DNA of 51,340 nucleotides, from positions 1 through 51,340 of the forward strand of contig JACQFV010000067.1 of assembly GCA_016199865.1 (NCBI GenBank). Reading direction: 5' to 3'. Below the pieces are notes generated by a model, which had not been told where the DNA came from, did not search any database, and worked only from the letters and a program-made list of their open reading frames with translations. Position numbers and translations under genes: made by a program. This document shows positions 3,031 through 47,212 of this stretch, piece after piece; positions within the stretch are counted from its first letter, which is position 1, and every line of letters begins with the position of its first letter. Source of the DNA: Candidatus Zixiibacteriota bacterium (GTDB lineage Bacteria; Zixibacteria; MSB-5A5; WJJR01).

Positions 3031-3051
3031 GATTGCGAGAGGAACGTAAGG

Positions 3052-4928: not shown

Positions 4929-4981
4929 GGGCGCAAAGACCGACTATGCGAGTGAGAGGGACATTGATCGGAGACAACAAA

Positions 4982-5027
4982 CCCCTCACCCTCCCCTCTC
5001 CCCAGCGGGGAGAGGGCCGGGGTGAGG
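4982..5027. repeat. REP-like imperfect palindrome (ccctcaccc..ccctctcccc-agc-ggggagaggg..ggggtgaggg)
   Basis: Read directly from the sequence. A related element lies at 50822-50924. Confidence 0.8.
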
Positions 5028-5049
5028 GTGCTTTCGAATCACGCCGGAG

Positions 5050-13406: not shown

Positions 13407-16400
13407 TTAGAACCGCCACTTGCCGGCCGGACGGGCCGCCGCGTTACCCGAGACATAGCTCATCAGTTGCGTGATGTCCGCACCGTCGTTCAATCCATCG
13501 GCGTTGACGTCGCCGCAGTAGGCCGCCGGATAGATCGGCAATGCACCGTTCTGCAACCACGCCACGTCGCACAGATTGACACAACCGTCGTCGTTCACGT
13601 CACCGCGGGCATAACCACCCCACCGTGCCGCGCGCTTCGCCACTGCCACCGCGTTCGCTTCGATCACAGCCGGATTGTTGGAGACGGCGCTGACTTCATA
13701 CAGCGTTTGATCCATCTCGTGCGATCCGTTGGGATTGAGATTGAACGACTTGTTGATCAGCAGGGTATTGGCGTCATAGTTGTTCACCGGGTCATCAACC
13801 AGTCGTGTCGGCTGCTCCTGCACGAGGTCAAACCAGACACGCCCGGTATCGCCGAGCGGCCAACTGTGGGGGGCGTTCTGACGGATCGAACCCCGGTAAA
13901 TGGCGATCCGGTACGGCGAATTGACCGTCGGATCCACTCCGCAGTAGGACGTCGGCTGGTTCGTTTCGAACATGCCGTAGGCGTTGCCCGGAGTGGCTCT
14001 GTCCCATGTGGCATACCCGTCGAAGTTGTCTGAGAAGAGGCCGCTGTTGTTCGATGCGTTACCGACGTCGAGGTCGAACCACGTGCCGGCGTACAGCGGT
14101 CCTTTGGCGACCGCGTCCCGGTTCATGATCTTCCAGTGGATCAACTTGAAGTCGCCATAGAGCGGATCATACGCCCCGACTTCGGTCTGAATGACCTCAA
14201 CGCCGATGGCCGCCTGCCGCGATCCGGCAACGGCCGCAACGTTGGTGTCGGCGAAGTCGTTGGTGATAATCTCACCCAAGATGTCCGCCGCGGTCCCTGG
14301 GCAGTCGACGCCGGTGCGCTTCTGGCCCAGCACGATGCCTTTCTGGGCGTCGAAGCCGCAAACATGCGACACCGGCGCGGCGTTACCAACGAACAGACCG
14401 TGCGCGCCGGTGCTGGCGTTGCGGTATGCCTCAGCTCGCACCAGAGCGCCGCCGGTGCTTGGCCCGCCCGAAATCGAGTCGTACGCGATGTAAAATCCAC
14501 CGTCGTAGTCGGGGTCCGAGGCATCGTCATGCCAGTGCATGTTCGTCGCGTTGGCGCTCTGGAACCCGAGGGCTCCGTAGCTGAACACGCGTTCGAAGTT
14601 CTTGTTGGCGCCGGCCGGGGCGTCGTTGAAGGTCAGCTCCTCGTGGGATTCCAGACATCCGCCGACGTACAGAACGTCGAGGGTGGCATGGGACGGCGGC
14701 CCACTGAAGCTGAAGTCCGGATCGTTGTTCTCGAAATCCAGGATGTTCAGATCAATTCCGCGCCCCAGACCCGTTCCATCGACATCCCACGACAGGTCGC
14801 CCGGATCGCCGGGGTTCATCACGACCGGCAGGGGCGAGCCGTTCAACTTGATGTTGGAAGTGCGCACAGCAGCGGCAGATGCAGCCGAGAAGGAGCGCGC
14901 ACCCGGATTCCCGTTGGTCAATTGGGCGGCCTGTTCCGTCCGTTTGATATCTCCGGACATGAACTCGCCGTCGACCAACTCGCCGTTGTACGATGCGATC
15001 TGCTGGGCTTTCGTCAAAGTCGCGCCTTCTTCGTAGAGATCCGCGCCCCTGAAGGCGCTTCTCATACGCTCCGTCCGATCCACGCCGGCACGATCCAGCC
15101 CACGCAGGACGGCCGCGGCGCTGGAGGGGAGAGGATCGGCTATGCCGACGCTGCTCATTGTCAGCGGCAGGTTGCCGATGTTCTCAAACACGCCCGGTTC
15201 GGCGTGCGGCTGCCCCGGACCGCTGTTGATCGGCACCGCGACGTCCGTGCTGAAGATATCCTGCTGCAGACGCGGCCGCGGACCGGTGTCCAGACGATAG
15301 ATTGACAGACGTCCGGCGCCGCTGGGCTCAGTCGAACGGAACGACACGGCGGCATAACGGTAGCCGTTGACCGAATGTGTCGCCAGGGCGGTACCGTTGG
15401 TGATGTCCGCGCCGGCGCTCGCCGGATACGACCGGTACCACTGCAGCGTCTGGTCGACGGCTTTGAAGAGCCACCACCGCGCATTGCGATCGCCGACAAA
15501 CAAGTAGGCGTCGCAGGACAGAGCGCAGGGCTCGGTCACGCCGGCAACACCCTCGTTGGCGAAGTTATGAACCGCCACGCCCGTCGCCTTGTCCACCATC
15601 AAAACCCCGGGACCACCGTCCATCGGGAAGTAGACAAAGCCACGGCCGATCGTCGGGCACGCGAGCCCGCGGCCTGAGCTGCCCTTCCAGGCGATAGAGG
15701 GTAAAGCGCCCGACTTGTCGAGTTTGTACACATGTCCGCCGGTGGAACCGTTGCTGGTTATGCCGTAGAGGAAGTTCCCCTCGACGGAGACACCACCGGG
15801 CCATCCCTCGGTCGCAACGTCGATGTAGTTCCAGTTCGTCGCGCCCGTCGCGGCGCTGATCGAATACAACGAACCCAGACTGGCCGTGCCGGCTTGCGCC
15901 GTACCGATGTACAGATTGGCGCCATCGGTGGCCGAGCCGCTGCGCACTCCCTTGTCCAACGTGATCGGGTTTATGGCCCAACCACCGTACAGAGCGCCGG
16001 TCGCCGCCACAAAGGCATACACGCGGCTTGTCCCGGACGACGGATTGGTCGTTACGAAGAGCACGTCCGTGCCGGCAACATTGACGATCGACGTGATGCC
16101 TTTCGATGTCGCCTGGGCCAATCCCGTCGGAATGTTCCCCGCGGTGCTGTAACTCCCGTTGTTCGACCAGATGAAGCCGCTGGTTTCGAGGTCGGGTCCC
16201 AATTTGCTCACGGCATTGAAGTTACCGCCGGTGCAGTAAACGCCACTGGCGTCCACTGTGGTCACGCCACGGTTTGCCGAACCCATTTCCGGCGCGCCCT
16301 GCAATTGGCCGAGCTGCGCACCGGGTGCGGCCAGATCATACACCCGCGTCTCTTGATCTGAAGACTGATACACGCGGTCGTTCGCGATCACCGGGCTGGT

Positions 16401-18026
16401 GAAATTCGTAACCCGTGCCGTGGGTGTCGTCCATTCGAGTTTGATCCCGTTCGGATCGCCCACGTTGACGTTGGAGGCGCCGGTGCGCTGGAAATCATGC
16501 GACGACGTCGGCCAGCTGTCCGGGCCGCCCGCGCTGCAATTGGTCTCGACGATCGGCACCTTCTCCTTGCAGATGAAGGCGTCCATCCACAATTCGCGTC
16601 GGCCGTTGGCGCAGCGCTCGTTCATGTAACGCCACTGCGGCCCGCCGGTCCCGTTGAAGTTCGGATAGAACGCGAGCGAATGCGTCGGCACGGTGCAATC
16701 CGGGGTACTCGTCGGATCACCACCCGCCACGATTGTGCCGTTCACGTGGTTGGAGTTGACCGCGTCAAACTCCAGGGAGACGATCAGGTATTTGATCGGA
16801 CCCCCGTTGAGCGTGCCCCACACTTGATCGGGTACCGTCACATCGAAGAAGCAGGGATCGTAGCAGATGTCCGCGAAGGGGATGGTCTGCGTCAGTCGCA
16901 GTGTCCCCGGGGTGGGCAGTGCGCAATTCGGGCTGGGCGGGCCATCCGCGTCCCAGATCCTGAGAGTCAGCCAGGTCTGATCACCCGGATCGTTGAAACC
17001 ATCATACAGACGGATACCCACCCTCTTCAGGGTATCCAGCCCGATGGCCTCAAATGCGACAGCGAGTTGTGTTCTGCCGCCGCATGACCCGTCCGGCAAC
17101 GGCACAATGCGCGACCAGCAGTCGGTCTGCCGTGTGCCGGCGCCAGGACAATTGGCCGGTTCGGTGCCATAATACCACCATTGGTAACCGCAGATGCCCG
17201 GGGTGCAATGAGTCAGCGGGTCACTCGGGGTGTACCCCTCGGACCAGACCAACTCGTTGGCGACGCCATACGTGGCGCCGTACCATCCCGACGAACCGCC
17301 TGTGCCATAGTAGTCGTTGGCAACGCAATAGCAGTCGTTCGGTGGCACCGGATCGTCAGCGGTGTTGCCGCTGGCCGCCAAGTCAAGCGACGGTCCCAAG
17401 TTACCATAGTTGATCGTCCCCGCCGGGTCGTACACAACGATCCCAGCGTAGTACGGGCCGGTTACGCAGGCCTCGATCTTGAACGGCAGACTCAGAATCG
17501 CCGTCGGGCCCGCGGGCCAATTCACACTGTAGACCGGGCCGGCGTGCCAGAGCGCTCCCGGGGCGGGGCAGGCGGGATTCGACATATCCGCGTGCCAGAT
17601 GACGGGCTGGAAGAGCCCGCCGACGATGTTGACGTTGGAGACGCGCCCCTGGAAATTTACCGCCGTCACGTCAAAGGTGTAGTTCGATCCGGGAGCGCAA
17701 GATCCCAGAGTGTTGGGATCTTGAAATGTGGCAAGGGCCTCCGGCTCGTAACTTTCGAACCAACCGCCGAAGCGCCAACCGCCCCAGGGCCCCTGCCATG
17801 TGTTATTGCAGAAGGTCCCCTGAACGACCCGCGGGGTGCCTGCCTGAATCGTCACCGTCGGCTCGACCGCTGACAGGTCATGCGCCGGCACGGTCCTCGG
17901 CTGGTGCGGCGCCAGCGCATTGACCCGCGCGTCGTCACCGGTATTAACCAGCTTCGCGGACACGGGGCTGAACGCCAGCAGGAGCAGTCCCAAGACGAGA
18001 ACTGCAATTAAGGGTTTTTTGTGCAT
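13407..18026 (-). CDS. 1539-aa secreted protein: signal peptide, central PQQ/BamB-like beta-propeller repeats, C-terminal dockerin-like module; no T9SS sorting domain
   Basis: Signal peptide 'MHKKPLIAVLVLGLLLLAFSPVSA'. Repeated 'V/LY.G...G.vYa.d..tG...W' blades (e.g. 'SRVYAFVAATGALYGGW', 'LYSISAATGATNWNY'). The C-terminus 'GDVNDDGCVNLCDVAWL..GDVNADGLNDGADITQLMSYVSG' forms two Ca-binding dockerin repeats. Confidence 0.85.
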   Translation of the reverse strand: MHKKPLIAVLVLGLLLLAFSPVSAKLVNTGDDARVNALAPHQPRTVPAHDLSAVEPTVTIQAGTPRVVQGTFCNNTWQGPWGGWRFGGWFESYEPEALATFQDPNTLGSCAPGSNYTFDVTAVNFQGRVSNVNIVGGLFQPVIWHADMSNPACPAPGALWHAGPVYSVNWPAGPTAILSLPFKIEACVTGPYYAGIVVYDPAGTINYGNLGPSLDLAASGNTADDPVPPNDCYCVANDYYGTGGSSGWYGATYGVANELVWSEGYTPSDPLTHCTPGICGYQWWYYGTEPANCPGAGTRQTDCWSRIVPLPDGSCGGRTQLAVAFEAIGLDTLKRVGIRLYDGFNDPGDQTWLTLRIWDADGPPSPNCALPTPGTLRLTQTIPFADICYDPCFFDVTVPDQVWGTLNGGPIKYLIVSLEFDAVNSNHVNGTIVAGGDPTSTPDCTVPTHSLAFYPNFNGTGGPQWRYMNERCANGRRELWMDAFICKEKVPIVETNCSAGGPDSWPTSSHDFQRTGASNVNVGDPNGIKLEWTTPTARVTNFTSPVIANDRVYQSSDQETRVYDLAAPGAQLGQLQGAPEMGSANRGVTTVDASGVYCTGGNFNAVSKLGPDLETSGFIWSNNGSYSTAGNIPTGLAQATSKGITSIVNVAGTDVLFVTTNPSSGTSRVYAFVAATGALYGGWAINPITLDKGVRSGSATDGANLYIGTAQAGTASLGSLYSISAATGATNWNYIDVATEGWPGGVSVEGNFLYGITSNGSTGGHVYKLDKSGALPSIAWKGSSGRGLACPTIGRGFVYFPMDGGPGVLMVDKATGVAVHNFANEGVAGVTEPCALSCDAYLFVGDRNARWWLFKAVDQTLQWYRSYPASAGADITNGTALATHSVNGYRYAAVSFRSTEPSGAGRLSIYRLDTGPRPRLQQDIFSTDVAVPINSGPGQPHAEPGVFENIGNLPLTMSSVGIADPLPSSAAAVLRGLDRAGVDRTERMRSAFRGADLYEEGATLTKAQQIASYNGELVDGEFMSGDIKRTEQAAQLTNGNPGARSFSAASAAAVRTSNIKLNGSPLPVVMNPGDPGDLSWDVDGTGLGRGIDLNILDFENNDPDFSFSGPPSHATLDVLYVGGCLESHEELTFNDAPAGANKNFERVFSYGALGFQSANATNMHWHDDASDPDYDGGFYIAYDSISGGPSTGGALVRAEAYRNASTGAHGLFVGNAAPVSHVCGFDAQKGIVLGQKRTGVDCPGTAADILGEIITNDFADTNVAAVAGSRQAAIGVEVIQTEVGAYDPLYGDFKLIHWKIMNRDAVAKGPLYAGTWFDLDVGNASNNSGLFSDNFDGYATWDRATPGNAYGMFETNQPTSYCGVDPTVNSPYRIAIYRGSIRQNAPHSWPLGDTGRVWFDLVQEQPTRLVDDPVNNYDANTLLINKSFNLNPNGSHEMDQTLYEVSAVSNNPAVIEANAVAVAKRAARWGGYARGDVNDDGCVNLCDVAWLQNGALPIYPAAYCGDVNADGLNDGADITQLMSYVSGNAAARPAGKWRF

Positions 18027-18623
18027 TTACAAAGTCCTCCTGAGTGAATCCACGATTTGAAGAACTGGTCTGGGTCGGAACAGTCGCGTCAACCGTTGCC
18101 GCCGACCGTTCGGGCCATGGCCTCTCGCCATGATCGTCTTATCGGCGTTTCCGGCTTTCAGGTTGCTTGCACTGGCTGCCATCGCTCGTTCCTGACCTTT
18201 CCATCTCTCCATTCTTTCGCAGGGCTCGGTTGCCAAATCGTCCATCCTCTTGTGGATCGTCTGACGTTCACCCGAATCGCCTGCTCGTTGCAGATCGTTT
18301 TCATCGGCTTACGCCGTAATGCGGGGAAACGGACATTCTTGAACGGGTTCGGAGGAGAACGTACTTACCCGCTCGGCTCGTACCCTTTCCCTCGCAGAAA
18401 GGGAGCACCGTTCGGTTGGTATTCTGGATCGAAGAGTCACCAGCGGCTTTTCTCAAACCACCGGCTTTAAACGCTCGATAATAAGATACTACGCGGCGCC
18501 TTCCTGTCAACGTTTTTTCCAAATTTTTTCTTGAAACCGCAAAATAAATTGGTCACCTTGAAGCCGGATCAGTCCTCGGCTGATTTCCCGAAGGCCCTGA
18601 CCCACGGAGAATCCAAGCCGATC

Positions 18624-20294: not shown

Positions 20295-20322
20295 TCCAGT
20301 CGGCCTGCCGATGGGAGTGTCA

Positions 20323-21018
20323 ATGAAGTGGGGTCACGCGCTCGTAATCATCTGCCTGGTAATGGTTTTCGCCCCGTCGCCGGAGGTCGCCGCGGCGCCG
20401 AAAATGCGATTCTCCGAACGGCTCTTCGATTTCGGCTACATGCCTGAGGGGCTGCGCGCCCAGCACCGCTATTGGCTCTACAACGTCGGGACGGACACCC
20501 TTTTCGTGAAGAGTGTCAAACCGTCCTGCGGTTGCACCACAGTGCCGTTGCCGCGAAAGCAGATCCGACCGGGCGATTCGGTTCCTTTGGATCTCTCATT
20601 CGACACCCACCGTTATCAGCTGCGGGTGAACAAATCGGTGACAGTCTACAGCGATGATACCACACAACCTGAAGCCAAGATTTACTTTACGGCCTACATC
20701 GGCGACTCGGCCCAAGCCATCCGGGTCGAGCCCAAGACGGCCTACCTCGACACCCTCGGCAAAGAGCAGCAGGTCATCACCGTCACCAATGCTTCGGATC
20801 GGGTCTACCGGGTTTCACTGACCTCACCCCCACCCGGCTACATGTCGGTCGACATCCCAGCCCCAGAGATTCCCGCCAACAGTAAGGCGCAATTGGTCTT
20901 GAAGGCAGGCCCGAAGACTCCCGTCGGTGAATACTCCGGCTCCCTGACACTGCGATTTGCCGGGCCGGACACGATCTCATTTACTGTCCCCATCTACGGG
21001 ATGGGCTATTATCATTGA
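20323..21018 (+). CDS. DUF1573 domain protein (two Ig-like modules), secreted
   Basis: Signal peptide 'MKWGHALVIICLVMVFAPSPEVAA' and the hallmark 'FDFGYMPEG..YWLYNVGTDTLFVKSVKPSCGCT'. Confidence 0.85.
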   Translation: MKWGHALVIICLVMVFAPSPEVAAAPKMRFSERLFDFGYMPEGLRAQHRYWLYNVGTDTLFVKSVKPSCGCTTVPLPRKQIRPGDSVPLDLSFDTHRYQLRVNKSVTVYSDDTTQPEAKIYFTAYIGDSAQAIRVEPKTAYLDTLGKEQQVITVTNASDRVYRVSLTSPPPGYMSVDIPAPEIPANSKAQLVLKAGPKTPVGEYSGSLTLRFAGPDTISFTVPIYGMGYYH

Positions 21019-23050: not shown

Positions 23051-26000
23051 TTACTTCAACAGCGTCATCTTGCGGGTCGCCGTGAAATCAGCGGCCTGGA
23101 CACGGTAGAAGTAGACACCTGACGCCACATGCGTTCCGGCGTTGTCAGTGCCATCCCACGCGACTTGAGCGCGTCCGGCATCATGACCCGCAAAGGTCCG
23201 CACTGTCTGGCCGGCGATGTTGTAAATCGCCAGCGACCAATCCGTCTCCTGCTTCAAGTTGAAGGCGATAACCGTCCCCGCGTTGAACGGATTCGGATAG
23301 TTCTGCAACAGCGCATACTCCGTGGGCACAGCCGACTTGGCCGCGCTCGAGGACAGAAGGGCGCCGGAGGCATCCGACATTTGCACGTCGGCCAATTCGA
23401 TCGCGCCATCACCGGTCGTCGGGATGGTCAGGATCTCGTTGGCGCCGGCATTGACCCGGGCGCCTTTGTCCCAAGCATAGACCAACACGCGCAGTTCACC
23501 GTTCTCCGCATGGGACGCCATCCGCAAATTGGCGGCGGCCGGCGAGAGAACCGGTGTCCCGACGCCCATTCCAGAGTACCGGAAGACCAACAAGGCGCCG
23601 CCGAGCTCGACCGAGGAATTGGTCTGCACGTGGACGGTGTTGTTTTCAACCCGCATGTTCGCCGTGCCGCTGTTCAGGTAGGGCGACATCTTCGGATTGC
23701 CCGGATCGTTCGGGAAGGGCTGCGCGTCGCCGGTGATGACCCGGATCAGATAGATCAGGTCGGCCACCGTCAGCGGCACGCCGTCGTCGTTGACGTCGGA
23801 CGCGAGAATCTGGGACTCCCGATATCCACCCTGCGACTGCGGCAGCGTGAAGACGTCGGGACCATAGATGAAGTAGTTCGTGAACAACACCGCGTCACCG
23901 ACTTCGTTGGCGATGTTGTTCAGGTTGATGTCGCCGCGATCGTCATGCGGCGGAATGACGCAGATCCAGCCGTCGCACAGCGAGATGATGTCCCGGGCCA
24001 CGTGCTTGCGCGGGTCGATGCACGACTGATCCGAGCCGATCGGGATGAACAACGTGTCACCCGTCACGGAGGACAGCGTGTTGTCGCCGCAATCCAGCGT
24101 GCAGAAGGCCACGCGGAAACACTGGCCGATGAAGTTACGATCGCTGGAGACCAGGAACTTCAGCGCGATGATCTTGCCGTCCAGGTGGAAGTCCGCCGGC
24201 GCCGGGTGGATCGTTGAGCCATTGTTCAAGTCGGCAATGGCCACAACCCGGAGGTAGCCGGAGGGGCAGCCGCCCGTGCAGTTCGAATTGGCGCTGAACC
24301 GCCAGGTGAAGTATTCCCACTTCTTCAGGTTCCCCTCCGCGGTCGCGCCGAGGAAGGACATCCCGGACTTGTCGTAGCACAGAAGCAGGTCCAAACCACC
24401 CAACGGATAGCTGTTGCTAACCTTGACCCAGATCGTCGCCGTCTGGCCGCTCAGTACTTCCACGATGCTGTCGGTGCCAACTTCGTCGCCGACGCACAGC
24501 TTGTAGGACAGAACGGTGATGTCAAAGCAGCAGGTGTCCTTCTGTCCGCACTCGTCCGACCCGATGACGCAGGCGGTCCATACACCAGCATCGCACTCAT
24601 TCGCGGCAGAAGTCTGCCATGAGAAGTGGCCGGAATCATCGACCGTCGGAGCGTTGTCCGGACCGCAGGCCTGATGGCTGTCGGCGGTCTTGACAAAGCT
24701 CAACAGCGAGTAGTGGATCTTCCCGCCGTCGGCGTCTGTCCCGGTTGCCGTCCCCTTGATCAAGTCACCCAACAGTGCCAAAGGTATGGTCGGGCAGGTG
24801 ATCACGGGGGCCGGATTGACCACGGTCACGGTGAAGCAGCAGGTGTCGGCCTTTTCGCAGTCGAACACCCGCACGCAGATCGTGATCGGACCCTTGCCGA
24901 AATCGGCGCAATCCGGGTCAAACGTCAAGGTGCTGCCGCTGATCGTCGGGGCGTTTTGCGGCGCGGGAACGGCCGAAATCACCGTCCACGTCAACGGGCA
25001 CTTGCAATTGTCGTCCGTCGCGACCAGAGGCACGTTCGCATTCGCTGCATTCCAGTTGATCGTGATGTTGGCCGGATTGGTGCACACCGGCGCATTCTGG
25101 AACACGGTCACGTTGAACGTGCAGAGGACCGAATCGCAACCGTCGGAGGCGTAGAAAGAGATGACGTGTGTGCCGACGTCGGCGCACGTCGTGGCCCAGT
25201 TGTACACTCCGGCGGAAGTCACCGTGCCCGGCGATCCCGCAGCCAGTGAATAGCTGAACGGATTGCCGTCGGCATCGCTCGCATTCAACTGCTTGCCAAC
25301 CACTCCGGTCTGGAAATACACGGTCACGTCCGCGTTGGTGCCGCAAACCGGCGCGGTGTTGGTCACGGTCACAGTGAAGGTGCACTGAACCGACGCGCCG
25401 CACTGATCGGTGGCCCGGAAGGTCACCGTGTGTACGCCTTTGTCCTGGCAGGACGCGCAGTAGTTGAACTTTCCATCCAGGGAAACGGTCGCGCCATGCA
25501 GACCACCCGCGTTGGCCAGGGAATACGCCAACGGGTTGTCGCAGACGTCAGGATCCGAGGCGTTCAACTGCTTGTTCACGACGCACGCGGTGAAGTTACG
25601 TGATTCGTTGCTGTTCTGGCCACAAACCGGCGGTTTGTTTTCCAGCGGAAGCGTGCTTTTGAACCACTCGATGGTGTCCTTGCATGCACCGCAGTCGAAA
25701 GAGATGTATGCACCCGCTGGCGGGAAAAAGGCCGTGTCAATGACGATATCGCCTTGGCAAGTACTGGGGGTTTGGATCGTCAAGATCCAGAGAGCGGGAT
25801 AATTGCCTGGGGGCAGGCAACACCCGCTGAAATTCACAACACCCGTCGTCCCCGGAAAACCGCCCACGCCGGTCAAACAACCGGCCAGAGCAGCCGTCGG
25901 AGTCGCCGACAGAATCGTCGCTCCTCCGGAAATGGTCAGGGGTAAGCCCCAACCACCGATGGAACTCGTGGTGTTGAGAAAGATCGGCACCTGAATGGTC

Positions 26001-26134
26001 GCGCAGCGGGGTATCCCCTGGTTCTGCTGACCGTTCGGGTGACCGAGACCACCAGAATTGCTGGCAAAGGCGACACCGGATGAGAGAAGCAGGGCCAGAC
26101 CTACGCAGGCCAGTACTGTCAGTTTATGCTTCAT
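23051..26134 (-). CDS. 1027-aa secreted protein: signal peptide, about 4 Cys-rich Ig-like modules, cohesin-like module, dockerin-like module, T9SS C-terminal sorting domain
   Basis: Signal peptide 'MKHKLTVLACVGLALLLSSGVAFA'. Modules end in '..TFTVTVTNTAPVC', '..TFNVTVFQNAPVC', '..CFTVTVVNPAPVI'. Cohesin-like 'ATIWVKVSNSYPLGGLDLLLCYDKSGMSFLGA'. Dockerin-like 'GDINLNNIANEVGDAVLFTNYFIYG..SDVNDDGVPLTVADLIYLIRVITGD'. CTD 'LLQNYPNPFNAGTVIAF..SGVYFYRVQAADFTATRKMTLLK'. Confidence 0.88.
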   Translation of the reverse strand: MKHKLTVLACVGLALLLSSGVAFASNSGGLGHPNGQQNQGIPRCATIQVPIFLNTTSSIGGWGLPLTISGGATILSATPTAALAGCLTGVGGFPGTTGVVNFSGCCLPPGNYPALWILTIQTPSTCQGDIVIDTAFFPPAGAYISFDCGACKDTIEWFKSTLPLENKPPVCGQNSNESRNFTACVVNKQLNASDPDVCDNPLAYSLANAGGLHGATVSLDGKFNYCASCQDKGVHTVTFRATDQCGASVQCTFTVTVTNTAPVCGTNADVTVYFQTGVVGKQLNASDADGNPFSYSLAAGSPGTVTSAGVYNWATTCADVGTHVISFYASDGCDSVLCTFNVTVFQNAPVCTNPANITINWNAANANVPLVATDDNCKCPLTWTVISAVPAPQNAPTISGSTLTFDPDCADFGKGPITICVRVFDCEKADTCCFTVTVVNPAPVITCPTIPLALLGDLIKGTATGTDADGGKIHYSLLSFVKTADSHQACGPDNAPTVDDSGHFSWQTSAANECDAGVWTACVIGSDECGQKDTCCFDITVLSYKLCVGDEVGTDSIVEVLSGQTATIWVKVSNSYPLGGLDLLLCYDKSGMSFLGATAEGNLKKWEYFTWRFSANSNCTGGCPSGYLRVVAIADLNNGSTIHPAPADFHLDGKIIALKFLVSSDRNFIGQCFRVAFCTLDCGDNTLSSVTGDTLFIPIGSDQSCIDPRKHVARDIISLCDGWICVIPPHDDRGDINLNNIANEVGDAVLFTNYFIYGPDVFTLPQSQGGYRESQILASDVNDDGVPLTVADLIYLIRVITGDAQPFPNDPGNPKMSPYLNSGTANMRVENNTVHVQTNSSVELGGALLVFRYSGMGVGTPVLSPAAANLRMASHAENGELRVLVYAWDKGARVNAGANEILTIPTTGDGAIELADVQMSDASGALLSSSAAKSAVPTEYALLQNYPNPFNAGTVIAFNLKQETDWSLAIYNIAGQTVRTFAGHDAGRAQVAWDGTDNAGTHVASGVYFYRVQAADFTATRKMTLLK

Positions 26135-39587: not shown

Positions 39588-42500
39588 CTACTTCAGCAGC
39601 GTCATCTTCTTGATCTGGATGCCCTGCTGGGTCTGCACGCGGTACAGGTAGATTCCCGACGCCAGCTGTACGCCGTTGTCGTTGCGGCCGTCCCACCGGA
39701 CTTCGACCCAGCCGCCTGCGGTTTCGCCCTCGCTGTACCAGATGCGCCGTCCGGTGATGTCGTAGATCGACACCGAGTATGGACCGGGCTGATCGAGACC
39801 GAAACGGATGACCGTGCCGGCGTTGAACGGGTTCGGGTAGTTTTGCTGCAGGTTGAATCCGGTCGGCAACGGCGCTCCGTGGGCGAGAGTCGCCGGCAGC
39901 ACCTCGCCGTCGCCGGTGGACAGATCATAGGTCGAGACTGAAGCCCGCGCCGCATTGGTCATGGGAATCGTCACGACCGTGTGTCGTCCTGCCGGAATCT
40001 GCCGGGCCGTGCGGCTGTAGACGAGCACGCGCAGCTGGTTTCCTTCCAGATTTGACCTGATCTCCATGTCCGCCACGTCCGGTGTCAAGGCCGGTGTGCC
40101 GATTTCAGCGTCGCTGGGGACGTCGATCACAAAATGCGCGCCTCCGACCGCGACATCCGATTGCCACCCCAGTTGCAGGGCGCCGTCGGCAACGGTCGCC
40201 ACCACGTGGGCCGGATCGAGCGCCAAAATCTTCGGATTGCCACCCGGCAGCAGGGGCTGCTGATCGCCGGTGATGATCCGGATGAGGAAGATCAAGTCGG
40301 CCACCGTCAGCACGATCCCGTCGTCGTTCACGTCCGACGCCAAGAGTTGCGCCGCCTTGTAGACCGGGTTCCAGACCTTGTCACCGTAGATGAAGTAGTT
40401 GGTATAGAGCACGGCGTCGCCGACTTCATTGGCAATGCCGTTCAGATTCACATCGCCGCGATCGTCGGGCGGCTCCTGGATGCAAATCTGCCCATCGGTA
40501 AAGCAGATGGCTGATATTGGGTTGACCTTCGCTTGGGATTGGCAGGTGTCGTAGCGGACGCCGACGCCGATGAATGTCGTGTCGCCCGTCTTGTCCGAAA
40601 TCGTGTTGTCGCCGCAATCCAGCCAGCAGAAACGGATCGGGAGGCACTGCCCGATGAAGTTGCGGTCCGTCGTCACGAGGAACTTGATGGTGGCAATCAC
40701 GCCGTCGGGCAAAAACTCCTCCGCCGGGGGATGCGACGAACCATTGTTCATGTCGGCGATGCCGATGATGCGGATCAATCCCGAGGGACAGCCGATACCG
40801 CAATCGCCGCGCGTGCCGAGCCGGTAGGTGAAGTACTCCCAGTTCGGGATGACGCTGCCCTTCTGAGCGGTGACGAAGTTGACTCCGGTCGGGTCAAAGC
40901 AGAGCAGGAAATCATATCCGCCCAACAGGGCATTGGTGTGGTCAATTAGGATCGGCACAGTCACTGTTTCGCCGTTTAAGACGTCGAGCTGCGTGCCGCC
41001 GTTGATCGACACCCGGATCCGGCATTCGCAATCCTGGCCGGGGACGACGATGATCACCACGGTGTCGGCGTCGGTGAACTGACAGGAGTCGGTCACGTTC
41101 GCCATGATGGTGAAGAATCCGGTTCCCGTCGGAGTGAAGCAGATCATGTTGGCCGCGGTGTCAATCGTGGCGCCAGCCGGTCCCGAGGCCAACGATTCCG
41201 TCAGTTTGCTGAACCCGTTCGGATCGGACACCGTGTACGTGACGCATATCTGCGCCGGCGTGCACTGCTGGACCGTCTGATCGGGACCCAGCACGATCTT
41301 CGGCGGGCTGTTTAGCGTGACGGTGTAAACGACCGTGTCGCGATCTTCGGACCCGCATGAATCGGTCACCTTGGCGATGATCGTGTAGGTTCCCGACGAC
41401 CCGGGCGTGAAGCAAACCCTGCGGTTTAGCGTGTCGAGGAAGGCCGCGGGCGGACCGGACAGGAGCATGTCGGTCAATTTGCCGGGGCCGTTGGGATCGG
41501 AGACGACATACGGCGCGCAGATCTGCGACGGGGTGCAGAGCGTGACCGATTGATCGGAACCGAAGTCGATTGTCGGCGGGCCATTGTAGGTGACATGCAC
41601 GACGGCCGTGTCCATGTCAAAGGCGCCGCAGGCATCCGTGACGATCACGACAATCGTGAAGTTGCCGCTCGTGCCCGGCGTGAAGCAGACCTTGTTTCCG
41701 GCCGTGTCGATCGCGGTGCCGGCCGGGCCGGAAAGCAAATGCTCACCCAATTTGCCGAGGCCGTTCGGATCGGAAACCGTGTACGGCACGCAGATCGGCG
41801 CCGTGGCGCAGAGGAAGACAGTCTTGTCGACACCCAGATCGATCACGGGCGGACTGTTGAGCGTGACGGTGACGACGATGGTGTCATAGTCGACAAAGTA
41901 GCACGGCTCTTCTTCCCTGGCGATGATCGTGTAACTGCCCGACGCCGTCGGCGTGAAGCAGATCTTGTTGCCCGCCGTGTCGATCGTCGCGCTCGGCGGC
42001 CCGGAGACCAACGTTTCGATGATACCCGCCAGACCGTCGGGATCGGTTACGGTATACGGCACGCAGATCGGCGTGAGCGTGCACTGGAAGACAGACGTGT
42101 CGCGGCCGAAATTGATCTGCGCCAGTTTGTTGAACTTGTAGGTGACGTGGAATGACCCCTCGCAAAATGCCCCGCAGGTGTCGGTGCAGCGGATTGTGAC
42201 GGTGAACGACGTGTCGACGCCTGAGGGCGTGTAACACCAGGCGCCCTGGGCCAGGGCACCCGGACCGCTGATCAGAGCGCAAGTCGGCTTATGATCGCCG
42301 GTGGCGGATACAGCCAGACAGACCTGTGCCGGTGCGCACCGGTTATAGGTCTGGTCGGTTGGCAGGTAGCAGACCGGCGGCACGGCGGGTATCACCGTGA
42401 CGACGATCGTGTCGAGATCGAACGCGCCGCAGGAATCGGTCACTTTGGCGATGATCGTGTAGTTGCCGGTTACCGTCGGCGTGAAGCAGATCTTATTGGC

Positions 42501-43853
42501 CACCGTGTCGATGGAAGCTCCGGCCGGCCCCGAGAACAAAGATTCAGTCAATTTCCGCGGCCCATTGGGGTCGGAGACTGAGTAACCGACGCACACGGGC
42601 ACGGGTGGATTGCAGAGGGTGACCGAGGTATCGTTGCCCAAGACGATCAGCGGCGGGTCATTCATGTCAAAGGCGACGTGGAATGTCCCCTCACACGACG
42701 TGCTGCAGGCATCGGTACAGCGGATCGTCACATCCACACTCTGTTCGCCGGTCGGGGTATAGCACCAATTTCCGTTGGTCACTGCCCCTGGGCCGCCCAC
42801 AACTTTACAGATCACCGGCGGATTCAAACTGGTCGCCGTGACCGGCAGGCAGGCCTGGCTGGGCGCGCACTGGAAGATCGTCGTGTCGCGCGGCAGGATG
42901 CACACGGGCGGCTGCTTGGACTTGAACGTCGTCGTGAATTCGATGGAACACGAGTCGCCGCAGGCGTCTTTGCAGCGGATGATGACATGGATCGTCTCGC
43001 CGCCCAGGGGAGTGTAGCGGTACAGGTTGCCGCTGAGAATGCCTGGGCCGTACAAGACGCAGCTGGTCGCGCCCCCCTCCGGATCGACGTCGGTGAACGG
43101 CAGGATGAATTCGGCATTGGCGCAGATACTGGGCGCGACGGGCAGGAAATTGCAGACCGGCGGCTGGTTCAACGTCTTGGTCACGATCACCGTGTCCTTG
43201 TCCACCACGCCGCAGGAGTCGATCACCGTGACGATGATCGTGTCGGGCGCGCCGGTCGTGGCGGTGTAGCAGACCGTGTCGTTCGCCAGGGTCCCTTTGT
43301 TCACCGACTTGGTCTTGATGTTGTGGTCCGGATCGCTGAACCCGAAGGGTCCGACGCAGATCGACGCCGGCACACGGCAGAGCCAGACAGTCGTGTCGGG
43401 CGGGCCGGTCACGTTCGGCGGGTCATTGACGTCCACGGTCACCTTGACCGTGTCGCAGACCTTGACGCCGCATGAGTCGACGTCGCAGTCGATCAGCGAG
43501 TACGTTCCCGAGGTGTCGGGGACAAAACAGATGCTGGCGCCGTGAATGAAGCCAAACGGCACCTGCACCAGCACGATATTGTGGTCCAGATCGCCCTCGA
43601 TCCACGGCCCCCGGCAGATCGTGTCGCCGAGGCAGATGCGGACCGATGTATCGGCCGGCCCAATCACAAAGGGCGGCCGGTTGAAGTTGACGCAGACGGA
43701 GATCGTGTCGTAATCGCCGGCGCCGCAGGCGTCGGTCACTTTGGCGATGATCGTCCGGCACCCGGTCGCCGTCGGCGTGAAACAGACTTTGTTGTTGGCC
43801 GTGTCGATGGTCACGCCCGTGCCGGAGATCAACGATTCCGTGAGTTTCCCCAA
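39588..43853 (-). CDS. C-terminal 1421-aa part of a split giant surface protein: 11 Cys-rich ~95-aa modules, cohesin-like, dockerin-like, T9SS sorting domain; no signal peptide
   Basis: The listed TTG start is the Leu of the module motif 'SDPNGLGKLTE'. Cohesin-like 'VTVPILIDHTNALLGGYDFLLCFDPTGVNFVTA'. Dockerin-like 'GDVNLNGIANEVGDAVLYTNYFIYG..SDVNDDGIVLTVADLIFLIRIITGD'. CTD 'LQQNYPNPFNAGTVIRF..SGIYLYRVQTQQGIQIKKMTLLK'. Confidence 0.85.
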   Translation of the reverse strand: MGKLTESLISGTGVTIDTANNKVCFTPTATGCRTIIAKVTDACGAGDYDTISVCVNFNRPPFVIGPADTSVRICLGDTICRGPWIEGDLDHNIVLVQVPFGFIHGASICFVPDTSGTYSLIDCDVDSCGVKVCDTVKVTVDVNDPPNVTGPPDTTVWLCRVPASICVGPFGFSDPDHNIKTKSVNKGTLANDTVCYTATTGAPDTIIVTVIDSCGVVDKDTVIVTKTLNQPPVCNFLPVAPSICANAEFILPFTDVDPEGGATSCVLYGPGILSGNLYRYTPLGGETIHVIIRCKDACGDSCSIEFTTTFKSKQPPVCILPRDTTIFQCAPSQACLPVTATSLNPPVICKVVGGPGAVTNGNWCYTPTGEQSVDVTIRCTDACSTSCEGTFHVAFDMNDPPLIVLGNDTSVTLCNPPVPVCVGYSVSDPNGPRKLTESLFSGPAGASIDTVANKICFTPTVTGNYTIIAKVTDSCGAFDLDTIVVTVIPAVPPVCYLPTDQTYNRCAPAQVCLAVSATGDHKPTCALISGPGALAQGAWCYTPSGVDTSFTVTIRCTDTCGAFCEGSFHVTYKFNKLAQINFGRDTSVFQCTLTPICVPYTVTDPDGLAGIIETLVSGPPSATIDTAGNKICFTPTASGSYTIIAREEEPCYFVDYDTIVVTVTLNSPPVIDLGVDKTVFLCATAPICVPYTVSDPNGLGKLGEHLLSGPAGTAIDTAGNKVCFTPGTSGNFTIVVIVTDACGAFDMDTAVVHVTYNGPPTIDFGSDQSVTLCTPSQICAPYVVSDPNGPGKLTDMLLSGPPAAFLDTLNRRVCFTPGSSGTYTIIAKVTDSCGSEDRDTVVYTVTLNSPPKIVLGPDQTVQQCTPAQICVTYTVSDPNGFSKLTESLASGPAGATIDTAANMICFTPTGTGFFTIMANVTDSCQFTDADTVVIIVVPGQDCECRIRVSINGGTQLDVLNGETVTVPILIDHTNALLGGYDFLLCFDPTGVNFVTAQKGSVIPNWEYFTYRLGTRGDCGIGCPSGLIRIIGIADMNNGSSHPPAEEFLPDGVIATIKFLVTTDRNFIGQCLPIRFCWLDCGDNTISDKTGDTTFIGVGVRYDTCQSQAKVNPISAICFTDGQICIQEPPDDRGDVNLNGIANEVGDAVLYTNYFIYGDKVWNPVYKAAQLLASDVNDDGIVLTVADLIFLIRIITGDQQPLLPGGNPKILALDPAHVVATVADGALQLGWQSDVAVGGAHFVIDVPSDAEIGTPALTPDVADMEIRSNLEGNQLRVLVYSRTARQIPAGRHTVVTIPMTNAARASVSTYDLSTGDGEVLPATLAHGAPLPTGFNLQQNYPNPFNAGTVIRFGLDQPGPYSVSIYDITGRRIWYSEGETAGGWVEVRWDGRNDNGVQLASGIYLYRVQTQQGIQIKKMTLLK

Positions 43854-45745
43854 ACCGTTGGGATCAGAGAACGACGACCGTATCCAGATCAGAGGCGCCG
43901 CACCCGTTGGTCACCTTGGCGATGATCGTGTTGCACCCGGACCCAGCGGGTGTAAAGCAGATTTTGTTGGCGACCGTGTCGATACTGGCGTTCGCCGGTC
44001 CGGAGACGAGCGCTTCGGTCAGGGGTTGCGATCCGGACACGGTGTAGGTGACGCAAATCGCCGACGCCGCGCATTGGATCGCGTTTTGATCGGGCCCCAG
44101 ATCGATCGAAGGCGGCGTGCCTTGATTAATCGTGTAGACGATCGTATCGCGGTCTTCCGCGCCGCATGAATCCGTCACTTTGGCGATGATCGTGTAGGCG
44201 CCCGACCCCGACGGCGTGAAGCAGACCTTGTTGTTGAGAGTGTCGAGGAAGGCCGCGGGCGGACCGGACAACAGCAGTTCGCTCAGATGGCTCAGCCCGT
44301 TCGGATCGGAAATCGTATAGGACGCGCAGATCTGAACTGGCGTGCATTGCGTGAGGGTCGAATCGTGGCCGAAGGCGATGTCCGGCGGGGCGTTGAGCGT
44401 CACGCAAACGACGGTCGTGTCGTAGTCGTTCACCCCGCACGAATCGATCGCTTTGGCGATGATTGTCTGGCAACCGGAACCAGTGGGCGTAAAGCAAATC
44501 TTGTTGTTGAGCGTGTCAATGAACGCCCCCGATGGACCCGCGATCAGAAACTCGGACAGTTTGCCAAGACCGTTCGGATCGGAAACCGTGTACGGGCAGC
44601 AAATCTGTCCCGCCGTGCATTGGGCAATGTTCTTGTCGGCGCCCAGATCAATCGTCGGCGGGCCGTTGACTGTGACCGTGAAGTTGATCGTGTCGCGATC
44701 TTCGGCGCCGCAGGAATCGCTGACCTTGGCGATGATCGTGTAGATGCCGGAGATCGTCGGCGTAAAGCAGACCTTGTTATTGAGCGTGTCGAGGCGGGCC
44801 GCGGGCGGACCGGACAAAAGCATTTCGGTCAAATGGCCCAGCTCGTTCGGATCGGAAATCGTGTAAGGCGCGCAAATCTGAGACGGCGTGCACTGGACAA
44901 TCGTCGAATCATTGCCGAAGGCGATGTCCGGCGGTCCGTTCAAGGTCACATGGACGACGGACGTGTCGTAATCGGCCTGGTCGCACGGATCGATCACCCG
45001 AACGATGATCGAGTAATCACCTGATGCGGTCGGCGTGAAGCAGACCTTGTTGCCCGCGGTGTCGATAGACGCATTCGGTGGACCGGAAATCAGCGATTCG
45101 ATCAGTCCGTCCAGGCCATCGGGATCGGCGACGCTGTAGAAACAGCAGATCGGCGCCTGAGTGCATTGGGTGATCGTCTTGTCGGGCCCCAGATCGATCG
45201 TCGGCGGGTGATTGAGCAAGGCGTTGATTACGATGGTGTCGGAGTCGACGGCCCCGCAGTGATCGGTGACTGTCACGATCACCGTGTCCTTGCCCGAGAC
45301 TGTTGGGGTGAAGCAGACTTTATTGAGCGCCGTGTCGATGGTCGCACCCGGCGGGCCCCAGACCAGATACTCGGTCAGCCCGGCCAAACCGTCGGGATCG
45401 GAGACCGTGTACGGCAGACAGATCGGCACAGACGAGCACAGTACGAACGTCGTGTCGTTGCCCAGCGCGATATCCGGCTTCCGATTCAAGGTCACCGTCA
45501 CGTACATTGTGTCGCAACCCTGCAGGCCGCAGGCGTCGACCGCGCAGCAGATGATCTGGTAGACACCGGCGGTGTCCACCACGAAGCAAATCCTGCCGGA
45601 GGCGGGCATGAACCCGAACGGGATGAAGAAACTCATAATGTTGCCGTCGGGATCGGTCTCACTCCACGGGAACGTGCAGATCGTGTCTCCCTCACAGGCG
45701 GAGATCGCGAAATCCGGCGGCGCGAAGGTCACCGGTGGCCGGTTG
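41030..45745 (-). repeat. Array of 18 tandem coding modules (~95 aa each) spanning both ORFs of the split gene
   Basis: I counted the recurring core '..NK[VI]CFTPT.SG.YTIIAKVTDSCGA.D.DT.VV.VTLN.PP.I..G.D....QC....IC.PYTVSDPNG..KL.E.L.SGP': 7 in ORF 43864-46632 and 11 in ORF 39588-43853. An exact 31-nt identity links 41432-41462 and 44240-44270. Confidence 0.85.
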
Positions 45746-46632
45746 CCGCAGCACGGAGTATTGGCTTCGAATTTCTGGCACAGATTCGCCGACGAAAGGT
45801 TGGTGCACCGCTTGTTGGCATCCCCGTCGTTCGGGTCACAGGCGTTGTTGCCGGGGAGGGGGCAGGGGTCGGGCGGATCCTCGCCGCGGAATTTCGCCCG
45901 CAGCGTATAGGTGCCTGGCGCCAGAGGGATGGCGAGACGGTCGCAGGCCACTCCGAACGCGTCCGTGATCGCCGTGTCTTCTGCTACCTGACCGACGTTC
46001 GCACCACAATTGCCGGGATTGACGAAGAAGATGACTTCCCGTCCCGGCAGCGGCTGATCGGGATCGACATTGCACGATTGCGTCAGTGTGACGCAGACGT
46101 CGATCGAGTCGCCGGCGCTGCCGCACAGCGTGTCGCGGAGTGCCGAACTGAGCGTCAAATTCGTGTTGGCGCTCGTGAAGCCGGCCAGCCCCCACTCGCC
46201 GGATGCTGTGCCGGTGGCGGCAACCACGAGCGAGTCGTTGATGTACCCGGCCGGAATCACCCATTGTGTCGTGATGGCGCCATTCGGTGCGGCTACGGTC
46301 CACGCGTCCAGATTCTGACTGCCGGACTTGAGATTGGACTGGAGCGCAATGCGCAGCTTGACCGATTCACTGGGGGCGAACCCCGAGCCGGTGATCTGCA
46401 CCACTTGGCCCGGCGCATATCTGGCCTTGTCGGTCGCCAAGTTCGCAGTGCTGACGGGTGGATTCCCATCCACCGGATTTCCCGATCGGATGGCCGGGCG
46501 CCCCGGTGCCGCCCCCGCCGGCAGCGCGTACAATAGCGACGTCAAGAACAGGGCAACCGCACCGGCGGCATGGATTGACCAGCCCATCCACCGTTTGTTC
46601 CCCTTGGTAACGGCGACGTTCATGGAGATCAT
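43864..46632 (-). CDS. N-terminal 922-aa part of the split giant surface protein: signal peptide, ~300-aa N-terminal region, 7 Cys-rich modules; no sorting domain
   Basis: Signal/TM segment 'WMGWSIHAAGAVALFLTSLLYALPAGAAPG'. It ends abruptly inside a module ('..CGASDLDTVVVL*'). Confidence 0.85.
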   Translation of the reverse strand: MISMNVAVTKGNKRWMGWSIHAAGAVALFLTSLLYALPAGAAPGRPAIRSGNPVDGNPPVSTANLATDKARYAPGQVVQITGSGFAPSESVKLRIALQSNLKSGSQNLDAWTVAAPNGAITTQWVIPAGYINDSLVVAATGTASGEWGLAGFTSANTNLTLSSALRDTLCGSAGDSIDVCVTLTQSCNVDPDQPLPGREVIFFVNPGNCGANVGQVAEDTAITDAFGVACDRLAIPLAPGTYTLRAKFRGEDPPDPCPLPGNNACDPNDGDANKRCTNLSSANLCQKFEANTPCCGNRPPVTFAPPDFAISACEGDTICTFPWSETDPDGNIMSFFIPFGFMPASGRICFVVDTAGVYQIICCAVDACGLQGCDTMYVTVTLNRKPDIALGNDTTFVLCSSVPICLPYTVSDPDGLAGLTEYLVWGPPGATIDTALNKVCFTPTVSGKDTVIVTVTDHCGAVDSDTIVINALLNHPPTIDLGPDKTITQCTQAPICCFYSVADPDGLDGLIESLISGPPNASIDTAGNKVCFTPTASGDYSIIVRVIDPCDQADYDTSVVHVTLNGPPDIAFGNDSTIVQCTPSQICAPYTISDPNELGHLTEMLLSGPPAARLDTLNNKVCFTPTISGIYTIIAKVSDSCGAEDRDTINFTVTVNGPPTIDLGADKNIAQCTAGQICCPYTVSDPNGLGKLSEFLIAGPSGAFIDTLNNKICFTPTGSGCQTIIAKAIDSCGVNDYDTTVVCVTLNAPPDIAFGHDSTLTQCTPVQICASYTISDPNGLSHLSELLLSGPPAAFLDTLNNKVCFTPSGSGAYTIIAKVTDSCGAEDRDTIVYTINQGTPPSIDLGPDQNAIQCAASAICVTYTVSGSQPLTEALVSGPANASIDTVANKICFTPAGSGCNTIIAKVTNGCGASDLDTVVVL

Positions 46633-46975: not shown

Positions 46976-47212
46976 TCACTTCAAAAGCAACATCTTGCGA
47001 CTGGCGGCGAATCCGCCCGCCTGAAGCCGGGCAAAATAGATTCCGCTTCCCAACGGCCCGCCATCGGCGTCATCTCCGTGCCACGATCTTCTTGGGACGC
47101 TCCCGCACCTTTCGCGAGGGGCGAGATTTGCGACTTGTCCAGCCGCCCTTTGAATGCAACCCGCGACGCGGGCCTTCCGACGGTTACCTGAGTTTGTCCT
47201 GAGCCAGGTCGT
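46976..47212 (-). pseudogene. Decayed remnant of a T9SS C-terminal sorting domain (no start codon, frame broken upstream)
   Basis: The minus-strand translation ends '..RRSWHGDDADGGPLGSGIYFARLQAGGFAASRKMLLLK*' (compare 'VRWDGRNDNGVQLASGIYLYRVQ..KKMTLLK'). This frame has an in-frame stop 78 codons upstream and no plausible initiator. Confidence 0.5.

Follow-up and report, generated by a model that had tools for sequence, protein, structure and literature searches.

What does a bacterium gain from carrying a receptor-like and a ligand-like module side by side on one and the same polypeptide? The question is raised by two genes in a stretch of DNA of 51,340 nucleotides from Candidatus Zixiibacteriota bacterium (contig JACQFV010000067.1), referred to here at its full length as the window. 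Both genes, open reading frame (ORF) A and the interrupted ORF B, end in the same block, in which a preliminary description had recognized cohesin-like and dockerin-like modules and a type IX secretion system (T9SS) sorting signal. The module order of this cassette is Coh1–Doc–Coh2–CTD, where Doc is an internal dockerin, the two modules at its sides are cohesin-like, and the last one is the C-terminal sorting domain (CTD); Coh1–Doc–Coh2 is termed the triad. The reading proposed here is that Doc is clamped between the flanking cohesins, most likely in cis, and that the clamp would form a Ca-dependent, load-bearing pedestal for surface proteins exported by the T9SS. Drawn from structural models and coevolution, this proposal is about as apt to prove right as wrong.

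The shared cassette and its sorting domain

ORF A (23051..26134, minus strand; 1027 amino acids) consists of a signal peptide, Cys-rich immunoglobulin (Ig)/cadherin-like repeats (Big_9, Cadherin_4), and the C-terminal cassette. ORF B is read in two parts from the same strand. The proximal part (43864..46632, minus strand; 922 amino acids) holds a signal peptide and repeats of the same PKD/Ig-like family as the distal part (39588..43853, minus strand; 1421 amino acids), which has no signal peptide of its own and contains PKD/Ig-like repeats of ~93 amino acids followed by the cassette. Hydrophobic N-termini are present in ORF A and in the proximal part of ORF B, and the arrays that follow them are unlike each other, being Cys-rich and Big_9/cadherin-like in one protein and made of the ~93-residue PKD/Ig-like repeats in the other. 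The cassettes (window positions 23054-24511 and 39591-41030, both on the minus strand; 486 amino acids in ORF A and 480 in ORF B) align end to end in BLASTP, with 46% identity over 476 amino acids, 16 gaps, and an E value of 7e-135. They are collinear paralogues, with a similarity well beyond chance, as the preliminary description had claimed, and all the peptide strings quoted there are found in the two ORFs; the in-frame start of cassette A lies at nucleotide 24511 and not, as given there, at 24510. A search of the six-frame translation with hidden Markov models (HMMs) built from relatives finds exactly two full cassettes in the window.

The cassette closes with a T9SS type A CTD, located at amino acids 401-486 of cassette A (23054..23311, minus strand) and at 39591..39851 (minus strand) in cassette B. 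According to the T9SS paradigm, the CTD is an export signal that is removed, a surface anchor taking its place. Against a cut-off of 23 bits, TIGR04183 scores 40.7 bits in cassette A, where Por_Secre_tail and FlgD_ig also match, and 42.7 bits in cassette B, so that the earlier T9SS assignment is confirmed. Por_Secre_tail is matched by all 58 of 58 relatives. The combination that marks T9SS type A cargo, a CTD above the curated cut-off together with an N-terminal signal peptide, is present here.

The interruption of ORF B (about 43853-43870, minus strand) falls within a repeat unit. One unit stops at '…DLDTVVVL*' and reading resumes mid-unit in the next frame at 'SDPNGLGKLTE', as though ~95 nucleotides of repeat, which is no multiple of 3, had been lost. 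The cause is either a true frameshift, which would make the gene a pseudogene, or an assembly collapse of near-identical repeats. Another, degenerate T9SS CTD lies at 46979-47212 (minus strand), ending in '…WHGDDADGGPLGSGIYFARLQAGGFAASRKMLLLK*' and scoring 34 bits by the family HMM; stops crowd every frame upstream of it, and it looks like the debris of a third cargo gene directly upstream of ORF B.

A dockerin between two cohesin-like modules

Coh1 occupies amino acids 1-186 of cassette A (23954..24511, minus strand) and 40476..41030 (minus strand) of cassette B, the latter with 230 bits by the family HMM. The Pfam search that the preliminary description had suggested as a check does not single out the window copies: with a gathering score of 24.1 bits, the Pfam Cohesin model (PF00963) gives no match to Coh1 of cassette A and a subthreshold 21.8 bits (E 2e-4) to that of cassette B. 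The whole cassette was modelled with AlphaFold2 (AF2), with a predicted local distance difference test score (pLDDT) of 88.7 and a predicted template modelling score (pTM) of 0.63. The best Foldseek matches of the Coh1 model are cohesins, with template modelling (TM) scores of 0.77-0.82, E values of 1e-8 to 1e-9, and probability 1.0 (e.g., 2vn5_A, TM 0.82); the Archaeoglobus fulgidus cohesin 2xdh matches with a TM score of 0.77. A Coh1 profile from an alignment with 56 homologues matches PDB cohesin chains at E values from 7e-4 to 0.4, and 16 of the 58 relatives match Pfam Cohesin (best E 1.2e-8). Coh1 is thus predicted to have a cohesin fold, in the form of an enlarged, Cys-rich jelly-roll whose ~185 amino acids exceed the usual cohesin size, and its earlier labelling as cohesin-like stands. 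By their TM scores to solved cohesins (of type I in the case of Coh1), the AF2 models of both Coh1 and Coh2 (pLDDT ~89) agree with the cohesin jelly-roll, a beta-sandwich that typically has nine strands and ~140 amino acids. A further cohesin-like segment, which had been suspected near the N-terminus of the 1027-amino-acid protein, finds no such backing, with no Pfam match and, in the comparison with Coh1 by hhalign, an E value of 0.05 and a probability of 1%.

Across the family, Coh1 keeps the invariant motifs GG.DLL..YD, WEYFT.R, NC...CP.G, and DCGDNT, as well as several conserved cysteines. Some of the invariant residues are odd for a cohesin, namely the E in WEYF, the C and the D-N in 'DCGDNT', two more cysteines, and the 'NC…CP.G' insert. 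These residues could form disulfides or a metal site.

Doc follows at amino acids 187-268 of cassette A (23708..23953, minus strand) and at 40245..40475 (minus strand) in cassette B, where the family HMM gives 130 bits; the two copies are 70% identical. It comprises two Ca-loop-plus-helix repeats, DINLNNIANEVGD… and DVNDDGVPLTVAD… in cassette A, with D.N.N/D…D loops at cassette amino acids 194-206 and 239-251. Helices are predicted by AF2 at 204-216 and 249-260, together with a linker helix at 230-237 and a four-residue turn. This is the F-hand-pair layout of type I dockerins, with its two loop-helix repeats. The loops themselves are not of that type, which has 12 residues with acidic ones at positions 1 and 12; in all 233 of 233 triads, each of the two Doc loops runs to 13 residues, the last of which is the distal acidic ligand.

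With Pfam Dockerin_1 (PF00404; gathering score 22.9 bits), another of the checks suggested earlier, Doc of cassette A has no match and Doc of cassette B remains below the cut-off at 13.4 bits (E 0.09). Among 27 isolated Doc segments of relatives, Dockerin_1 is by far the commonest Pfam family, matching 14, all of them subthreshold (best E 3e-4). Compared with PDB sequences, the Doc profile has four matches: the dockerins 3ul4_B (E 0.019), 4fl4_A (0.098), and 4dh2_B (1.8), and a cytochrome P450 (0.94). Aligning Doc to 3ul4_B and 4fl4_A with HMMER requires a one-residue gap in the loop. Judged by its sequence, Doc appears to be a divergent dockerin and not a canonical member, a form in which the original dockerin assignment holds.

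The region between Doc and the CTD had been described as a spacer of ~130 amino acids. It contains a motif, 'VELGGALLVFRYSG…GELRVLVY…', that resembles the strand-3 region of cohesins, and for this reason Doc and the spacer were modelled alone. The top 26 Foldseek hits of this AF2 model (pLDDT 89.6; pTM 0.86) are all cohesins (TM 0.60-0.66), and the best match of the former spacer is 2xdh, a non-cellulosomal cohesin (E 9.5e-7, TM 0.66). The preliminary description was therefore right in the modules that it named and wrong about the spacer. This region is predicted to be another module with a cohesin fold, Coh2, whose likeness to cohesins is confined to the predicted fold. In cassette A, Coh2 with its linker spans amino acids 269-400 (23312..23707, minus strand) and is a short cohesin-fold beta-sandwich by AF2 and Foldseek; in cassette B, it lies at 39852..40244 (minus strand; 106 bits by the family HMM) and is 30% identical to its counterpart. 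When the profiles of Coh2 and Coh1 are compared by hhalign, a 15-residue motif alone is aligned, at an E value of 0.15. In the divergent relatives P0142 and P0166 (P and L numbers are labels of relative proteins and of relative genome loci, respectively), the best Pfam Cohesin stretch begins 18-27 residues past the internal dockerin, and the whole proteins score 77.8 and 68.4 bits with that model.

The triad is conserved as one unit, and its family is very large. With the CTD-less cassette as query, a word-indexed search returns 269 proteins, the named ones from Zixibacteria. A phmmer search with Coh1–Doc–Coh2 against 1.84 billion representatives of clusters at 50% identity returns 1,521 clusters at E ≤ 1e-3, mostly from Zixibacteria where members are named, of which 1,181 reach ≤ 1e-10 and 511 reach ≤ 1e-30. 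The proteins found in this way range from 320 to 3,600 amino acids, the triad lying nearly always ~90 amino acids from the C-terminus, and no NCBIfam model covers it. Among species-representative genomes, in a scan that the CTD pattern dominated and in which ~10 of 80 loci had a full cassette, the complete arrangement occurs in Zixibacteria metagenome-assembled genomes and in a few labelled Ignavibacteria or Calditrichaeota. Mean pairwise identity is highest for Doc (63%), followed by the CTD (53%), Coh1 (39%), and Coh2 (34%).

The architectures in which these modules occur are diverse. Some proteins of ~520 amino acids consist of the cassette only (P0017; L008 9854-11410), and minimal proteins of 281-296 amino acids have a signal peptide and Doc–Coh2–CTD (L008 6807-7652 and 7663-8553). 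Locus L008 (6807-11410, in the complete Zixibacteria genome OY760907.1) is a natural dissection series of the cassette: four small genes adjoin one another, all with lipoprotein-like signal peptides ('…LLSCSD'), and encode Doc–Coh2–CTD (281 amino acids), Doc–Coh2–CTD (296 amino acids), Coh1–Doc–Coh2 with no CTD (434 amino acids), and Coh1–Doc–Coh2–CTD (518 amino acids). At the other extreme, P0201 and P0179 carry three triads in tandem before the CTD. In P0155, three triads are followed by Doc–Coh2 and by a different, Pfam-positive terminal dockerin, and there is no CTD. Coh1 is found three times in P0142 and, in succession, four times in P0151.

Predicted contacts between the modules and their possible meanings

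The linker from Coh1 to Doc has 7 or 9 residues in 220 of the 233 triads, and the one from Doc to Coh2 varies between 5 and 13. With a pTM of 0.86 for the two domains together, Doc and Coh2 are treated by AF2 as one rigid body. Coevolution was analysed by mean-field direct coupling analysis (DCA) on 233 non-identical triads (effective number 213; 389 columns), and the analysis has signal, since 46 of its top 50 pairs are intra-module against 36% expected. The sole clustered signal between modules connects Doc columns 256, 257, 260, and 264 with Coh2 columns 315, 312, 311, and 310. On the Doc side it covers helix 3 and the end of loop 2, and on the Coh2 side the strand 'IGAALLV', which is third in the sandwich as modelled by AF2. 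Columns 256, 260, and 264 have the i, i+4, i+8 spacing of one helix face, and for 8 of the 11 Doc residues from 255 to 265 the best partner outside the dockerin is in Coh2 (base rate 39%). In loop numbering, columns 256 and 257 stand at positions 11 and 12; given the one-residue insertion, these would correspond to canonical positions 10 and 11, presumably the classical cohesin-specificity pair of dockerins. The third strand of cohesins, for its part, lies within the 8-3-6-5 sheet, through which cohesins bind dockerins. Dockerin helix 3 would then sit on Coh2, at its central strand. Helix-1 residues show a weaker coupling, spotted post hoc, to Coh1 columns 123-150, which cover the strands 'FIGQC…RFFW.DCGDNT…GDTLFI' (9 of ~30 residues, against a base rate of 9%), and the helix-1 face probably sits on these conserved strands.

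In the mechanism proposed, both ORFs would be exported by the T9SS as cell-surface proteins of a Zixibacteria-like bacterium. The CTD would carry the folded protein over the outer membrane and then be cut off, following the paradigm established in Bacteroidota, and the new C-terminus, that is, the end of Coh2, would become attached to the surface of the cell. Close to the membrane, the triad would serve as a pedestal, from which the variable Ig/cadherin-like arrays project outward. Doc would not act as a free ligand, its helix-3 face lying on Coh2 and its helix-1 face probably on Coh1, as suggested by AF2 and coevolution, and a clamp closed within one chain would provide adhesin-like proteins with a compact, Ca-dependent, load-bearing base. 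The cis arrangement is favoured because of the 1:1:1 adjacency of the modules, their tandem repetition, the existence of the unit on its own, and its packing by AF2 in a single chain. Alternatively, identical contacts might be swapped between neighbouring chains, joining the surface proteins into chains or a layer. A secondary possibility would be the capture of dockerin-ended proteins that have no CTD, such as the product of another gene in the window, ORF C.

ORF C (13407..18026, minus strand; 1539 amino acids) consists of a signal peptide, a PQQ-like propeller (PF13360, PF24248), and a terminal dockerin, with no T9SS CTD. This dockerin (amino acids 1475-1525, nucleotides 13452-13604) has two repeats with canonical 12-residue loops and passes Pfam Dockerin_1, with 25.2 bits against 22.9. 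The 12 full-length orthologues that were read all end in a like dockerin and an xWRF tail (mostly GAWRF), none of them with a T9SS CTD. They form a family of conserved Zixibacteria proteins of ~1,530 amino acids, with the N-terminus 'MHKKPLIAVL…'. ORF C is a candidate external ligand of the cassette cohesins.

A second class of C-terminal dockerin, named type-b, has two repeats and is flanked by cysteines ('…D.N.DG…D..YL..YLF.GGP.P.C'). It is found at L002 3-866, L005 809-2287 (minus strand), and L006 5216-6355, and at the C-termini of P0155, P0142, P0163, and P0166, that is, on CTD-less proteins adjoining cassette genes and at the end of multi-triad proteins. The type-b proteins of L002 and L006 also have a Coh1-like segment ('WEYL/WEFL…').

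The preliminary description had envisaged a different use of the same modules, with Coh1 as a free receptor and Doc as a free ligand binding in trans, which would build chains or a two-dimensional lattice. The two kinds of module are indeed present on a single anchored chain, and several cassette proteins occur per region (two in the window, two in L002, and four adjacent ones in L008). Of all the modules Doc is the best conserved, in keeping with a need for every paralogue to cross-react, Coh1 outnumbers Doc in relatives such as P0151 and P0142, and the contacts detected by DCA could be intermolecular. The AF2 monomer models nevertheless pack Doc onto Coh2 as one rigid body, with which the coevolution of helix 3 agrees, and in most triads read Doc stands directly between Coh1, at its fixed linker of 7 or 9 residues, and a cohesin-fold module, which resembles a folding unit. 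Tandem triads with their 1:1:1 composition would, moreover, saturate themselves. Self-association is thus possible and not favoured, Doc is unlikely to be a free ligand, and the repeated triad fits a self-contained clamp at least equally; binding in trans between free modules is, as a general account, unlikely. Quite unlikely, too, is that the cassettes serve as a scaffoldin-like, non-cellulolytic anchoring scaffold, whose CTD-anchored cohesins hold CTD-less, dockerin-ended proteins (ORF C and the type-b class) at the surface. In its favour, the ending of ORF C, with a Pfam-passing dockerin and no CTD, is kept in all orthologues read, and in L002, L005, and L006 the genes beside those of the cassettes encode proteins that close with a dockerin-like module of two repeats, also with no CTD. 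Relatives with tandem triads end in a CTD or a Pfam-positive dockerin (P0155, 35.7 bits; P0142, 25.6 bits), as in a tiered system, and a similar scaffold has been inferred for Cloacimonadota (PMC8542988). However, no site would be free if the internal dockerin fills both cohesin faces, the window has no dockerin-bearing enzyme, and the crossing of the outer membrane by a CTD-less protein would go unexplained.

It could also be argued that the modules are mere look-alikes, generic beta-sandwich spacers and a Ca-binding connector with no cohesin–dockerin contact between them. The cassette would then act as a simple stalk in front of the CTD, comparable to the Ig-like domain found in that place in many T9SS cargos. 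Beta-sandwich domains ahead of the CTD are common in T9SS cargo, the window copies score under the Pfam cut-offs, Coh2 has no sequence signal, and the loops have 13 residues instead of 12. This explanation is nonetheless very unlikely, as the best fold matches of both sandwiches are specifically cohesins, and relatives pass Pfam Cohesin while their C-terminal type-b dockerins pass Dockerin_1 (the internal dockerin being subthreshold). The coevolution between Doc and Coh2, in addition, falls on loop positions 11-12 (canonical 10-11) and on the equivalent of cohesin strand 3, and the three modules are strictly conserved as neighbours.

A number of observations weigh against the cis clamp itself. 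Neither window copy reaches the Pfam cut-off for Cohesin or Dockerin_1, and Coh2 has no cohesin match either in a Pfam scan of 25 segments or in a comparison of its profile with PDB sequences; CBM2-type sandwiches are also present, lower down, in its Foldseek list. No dockerin fold is found among the best 50 Foldseek hits of either model, all of which are beta-sandwiches, mostly cohesins. The pTM of the whole cassette is just 0.63, and the geometry of the interfaces, as modelled, draws solely on pTM and coevolution. As for the latter, the test of the Doc–Coh2 cluster gives P ~0.07, with an effective number of 213 sequences for 389 columns, the helix-1 signal towards Coh1 is the weaker and post hoc one, and DCA is blind to the difference between cis and trans contacts. 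It also seems odd, if Coh2 is the main partner, that Doc should be the most conserved module and Coh2 the least. No T9SS core gene was recognized among the window ORFs scanned, cleavage of the CTD and anchoring are extrapolated from Bacteroidota, and ORF B may, in view of its frame break, be a pseudogene.

A bolder version of the cis clamp can be drawn, although it is somewhat unlikely as a whole. In this intramolecular sandwich, one dockerin would engage two cohesins at once, its pseudo-symmetric faces resting on the cohesins at either side within a single chain. The sandwich could give way under load or exchange its partners with chains next to it. Adhesin-like T9SS proteins would thereby gain a pedestal with Ca-dependent sacrificial bonds or a surface layer that assembles itself, and the open state could carry CTD-less proteins of the ORF C kind to the surface, possibly as hitch-hikers on the T9SS.

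Genetic neighbourhood, known systems, and significance

The cassettes are surrounded by genes with housekeeping roles (the Bat operon, RsgA, RtcB, PurD, and an M50 peptidase), and a specialized gene island is therefore ruled out. A cellulosome is likewise rejected, because no carbohydrate-active enzyme (CAZyme), glycoside hydrolase, or carbohydrate-binding module (CBM) family was found in or around ORFs A, B, and C. The Bat-type aerotolerance operon lies at window positions 898-7706 (plus strand) and comprises a DUF4381-like protein, two VWA/BatA-BatB proteins, TPR proteins, and BatD; after it come an LPG-synthase-like membrane protein and RsgA. Between ORF C and RtcB, at 18531-21018 (plus strand), lie a 587-amino-acid ORF, which matches Por_Secre_tail only faintly (E 0.01), and, immediately after it, a gene for a DUF1573/HYDIN-type Ig-like protein. 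The 587-amino-acid ORF may encode a further surface or T9SS protein.

In its general layout, the pair of ORFs resembles T9SS type A cargo such as the gingipain RgpB and the SprB-type adhesins of Flavobacterium, sharing with it an N-terminal signal peptide, Ig-like domains in long arrays, and the TIGR04183 CTD. Cleavage of the CTD and attachment to the surface are expected of such cargo. The host phylum of the cassette is Zixibacteria, in contrast to the Bacteroidota that supply these examples, and a T9SS cargo in which a cohesin–dockerin–cohesin unit stands ahead of the CTD is not known to have been described. Non-cellulosomal cohesin and dockerin modules were reportedly surveyed by Peer et al. 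in 2009. Modules of this kind (e.g., 2xdh) are similar in that they occur outside cellulose degradation and sometimes on one polypeptide; what differs here is that the modules form a fixed Coh–Doc–Coh triad, that a candidate phylum of diderm bacteria has this triad fused to a T9SS sorting domain, that relatives repeat it in tandem, and that its dockerin has invariant 13-residue loops.

Closer to the modelled contact are the X-module–dockerin dyads of types II and III (2b59, 4iu3), in which a beta-sandwich packs rigidly on the dockerin and stabilizes it, much as Doc and Coh2 would with their pTM of 0.86. In the cassette, however, the order is reversed, with Doc before the sandwich, and the sandwich has a predicted cohesin fold instead of the Ig-like X fold. 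The coevolving Doc residues at cohesin-recognition positions suggest true docking and not the lateral support seen in those dyads.

Cohesins and a dockerin on one chain are normal in adaptor scaffoldins (PMC3413522). Those of Acetivibrio cellulolyticus (ScaA/ScaB/ScaC) and Ruminococcus flavefaciens (ScaA/ScaB) are comparable to the cassette proteins in this respect and in their tiers of anchored and dockerin-ended members. They consist of cohesin runs with one terminal (X-)dockerin that binds another protein, are anchored by SLH domains or sortase in Gram-positives, and have CAZymes as cargo. The cassette, in contrast, has an internal dockerin with cohesins on both sides at ~1:1:1, a CTD as anchor, and no CAZymes seen. 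The nearest parallel is 'Ca. Stygibacter' of the Cloacimonadota, also a member of the FCB (Fibrobacteres–Chlorobi–Bacteroidetes) group, for which a CTD-bearing cohesin scaffold with dockerin enzymes has already been inferred (PMC8542988). There, tandem cohesins are combined with CBMs and dockerin-bearing hydrolases, and no Coh–Doc–Coh triad or internal dockerin has been described (PMC8542988). The preliminary statement that such modules are functionally uncharacterized in T9SS-bearing lineages needs qualifying to that extent (PMC8542988), and it holds for Zixibacteria, as literature searches pairing this phylum with cohesin or dockerin found no paper. No description was found of a fixed unit in which two cohesin-fold modules flank an internal dockerin, of the joining of such a unit to a T9SS CTD, of the invariant 13-residue loops, or of the scale of the family in Zixibacteria.

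The significance of these genes lies in a fixed Coh–Doc–Coh unit with a T9SS signal. More than 1,500 protein clusters from a diderm phylum without cultured members contain this unit, which occurs on its own, as the base of giant adhesin-like proteins, or repeated in tandem. Cohesin–dockerin pairs are a textbook case of modular, ultra-strong assembly, widely used in synthetic biology and known almost wholly from Gram-positive cellulosomes. If the cis clamp is true, it would be a new use of the pair, as an internal clasp instead of an intermolecular plug, and would offer a compact, Ca-switchable building block. It would also provide a testable idea of how dockerin-ended proteins that have no T9SS signal could be held at, or brought to, the surface, and a first handle on the organization of the Zixibacteria cell surface.

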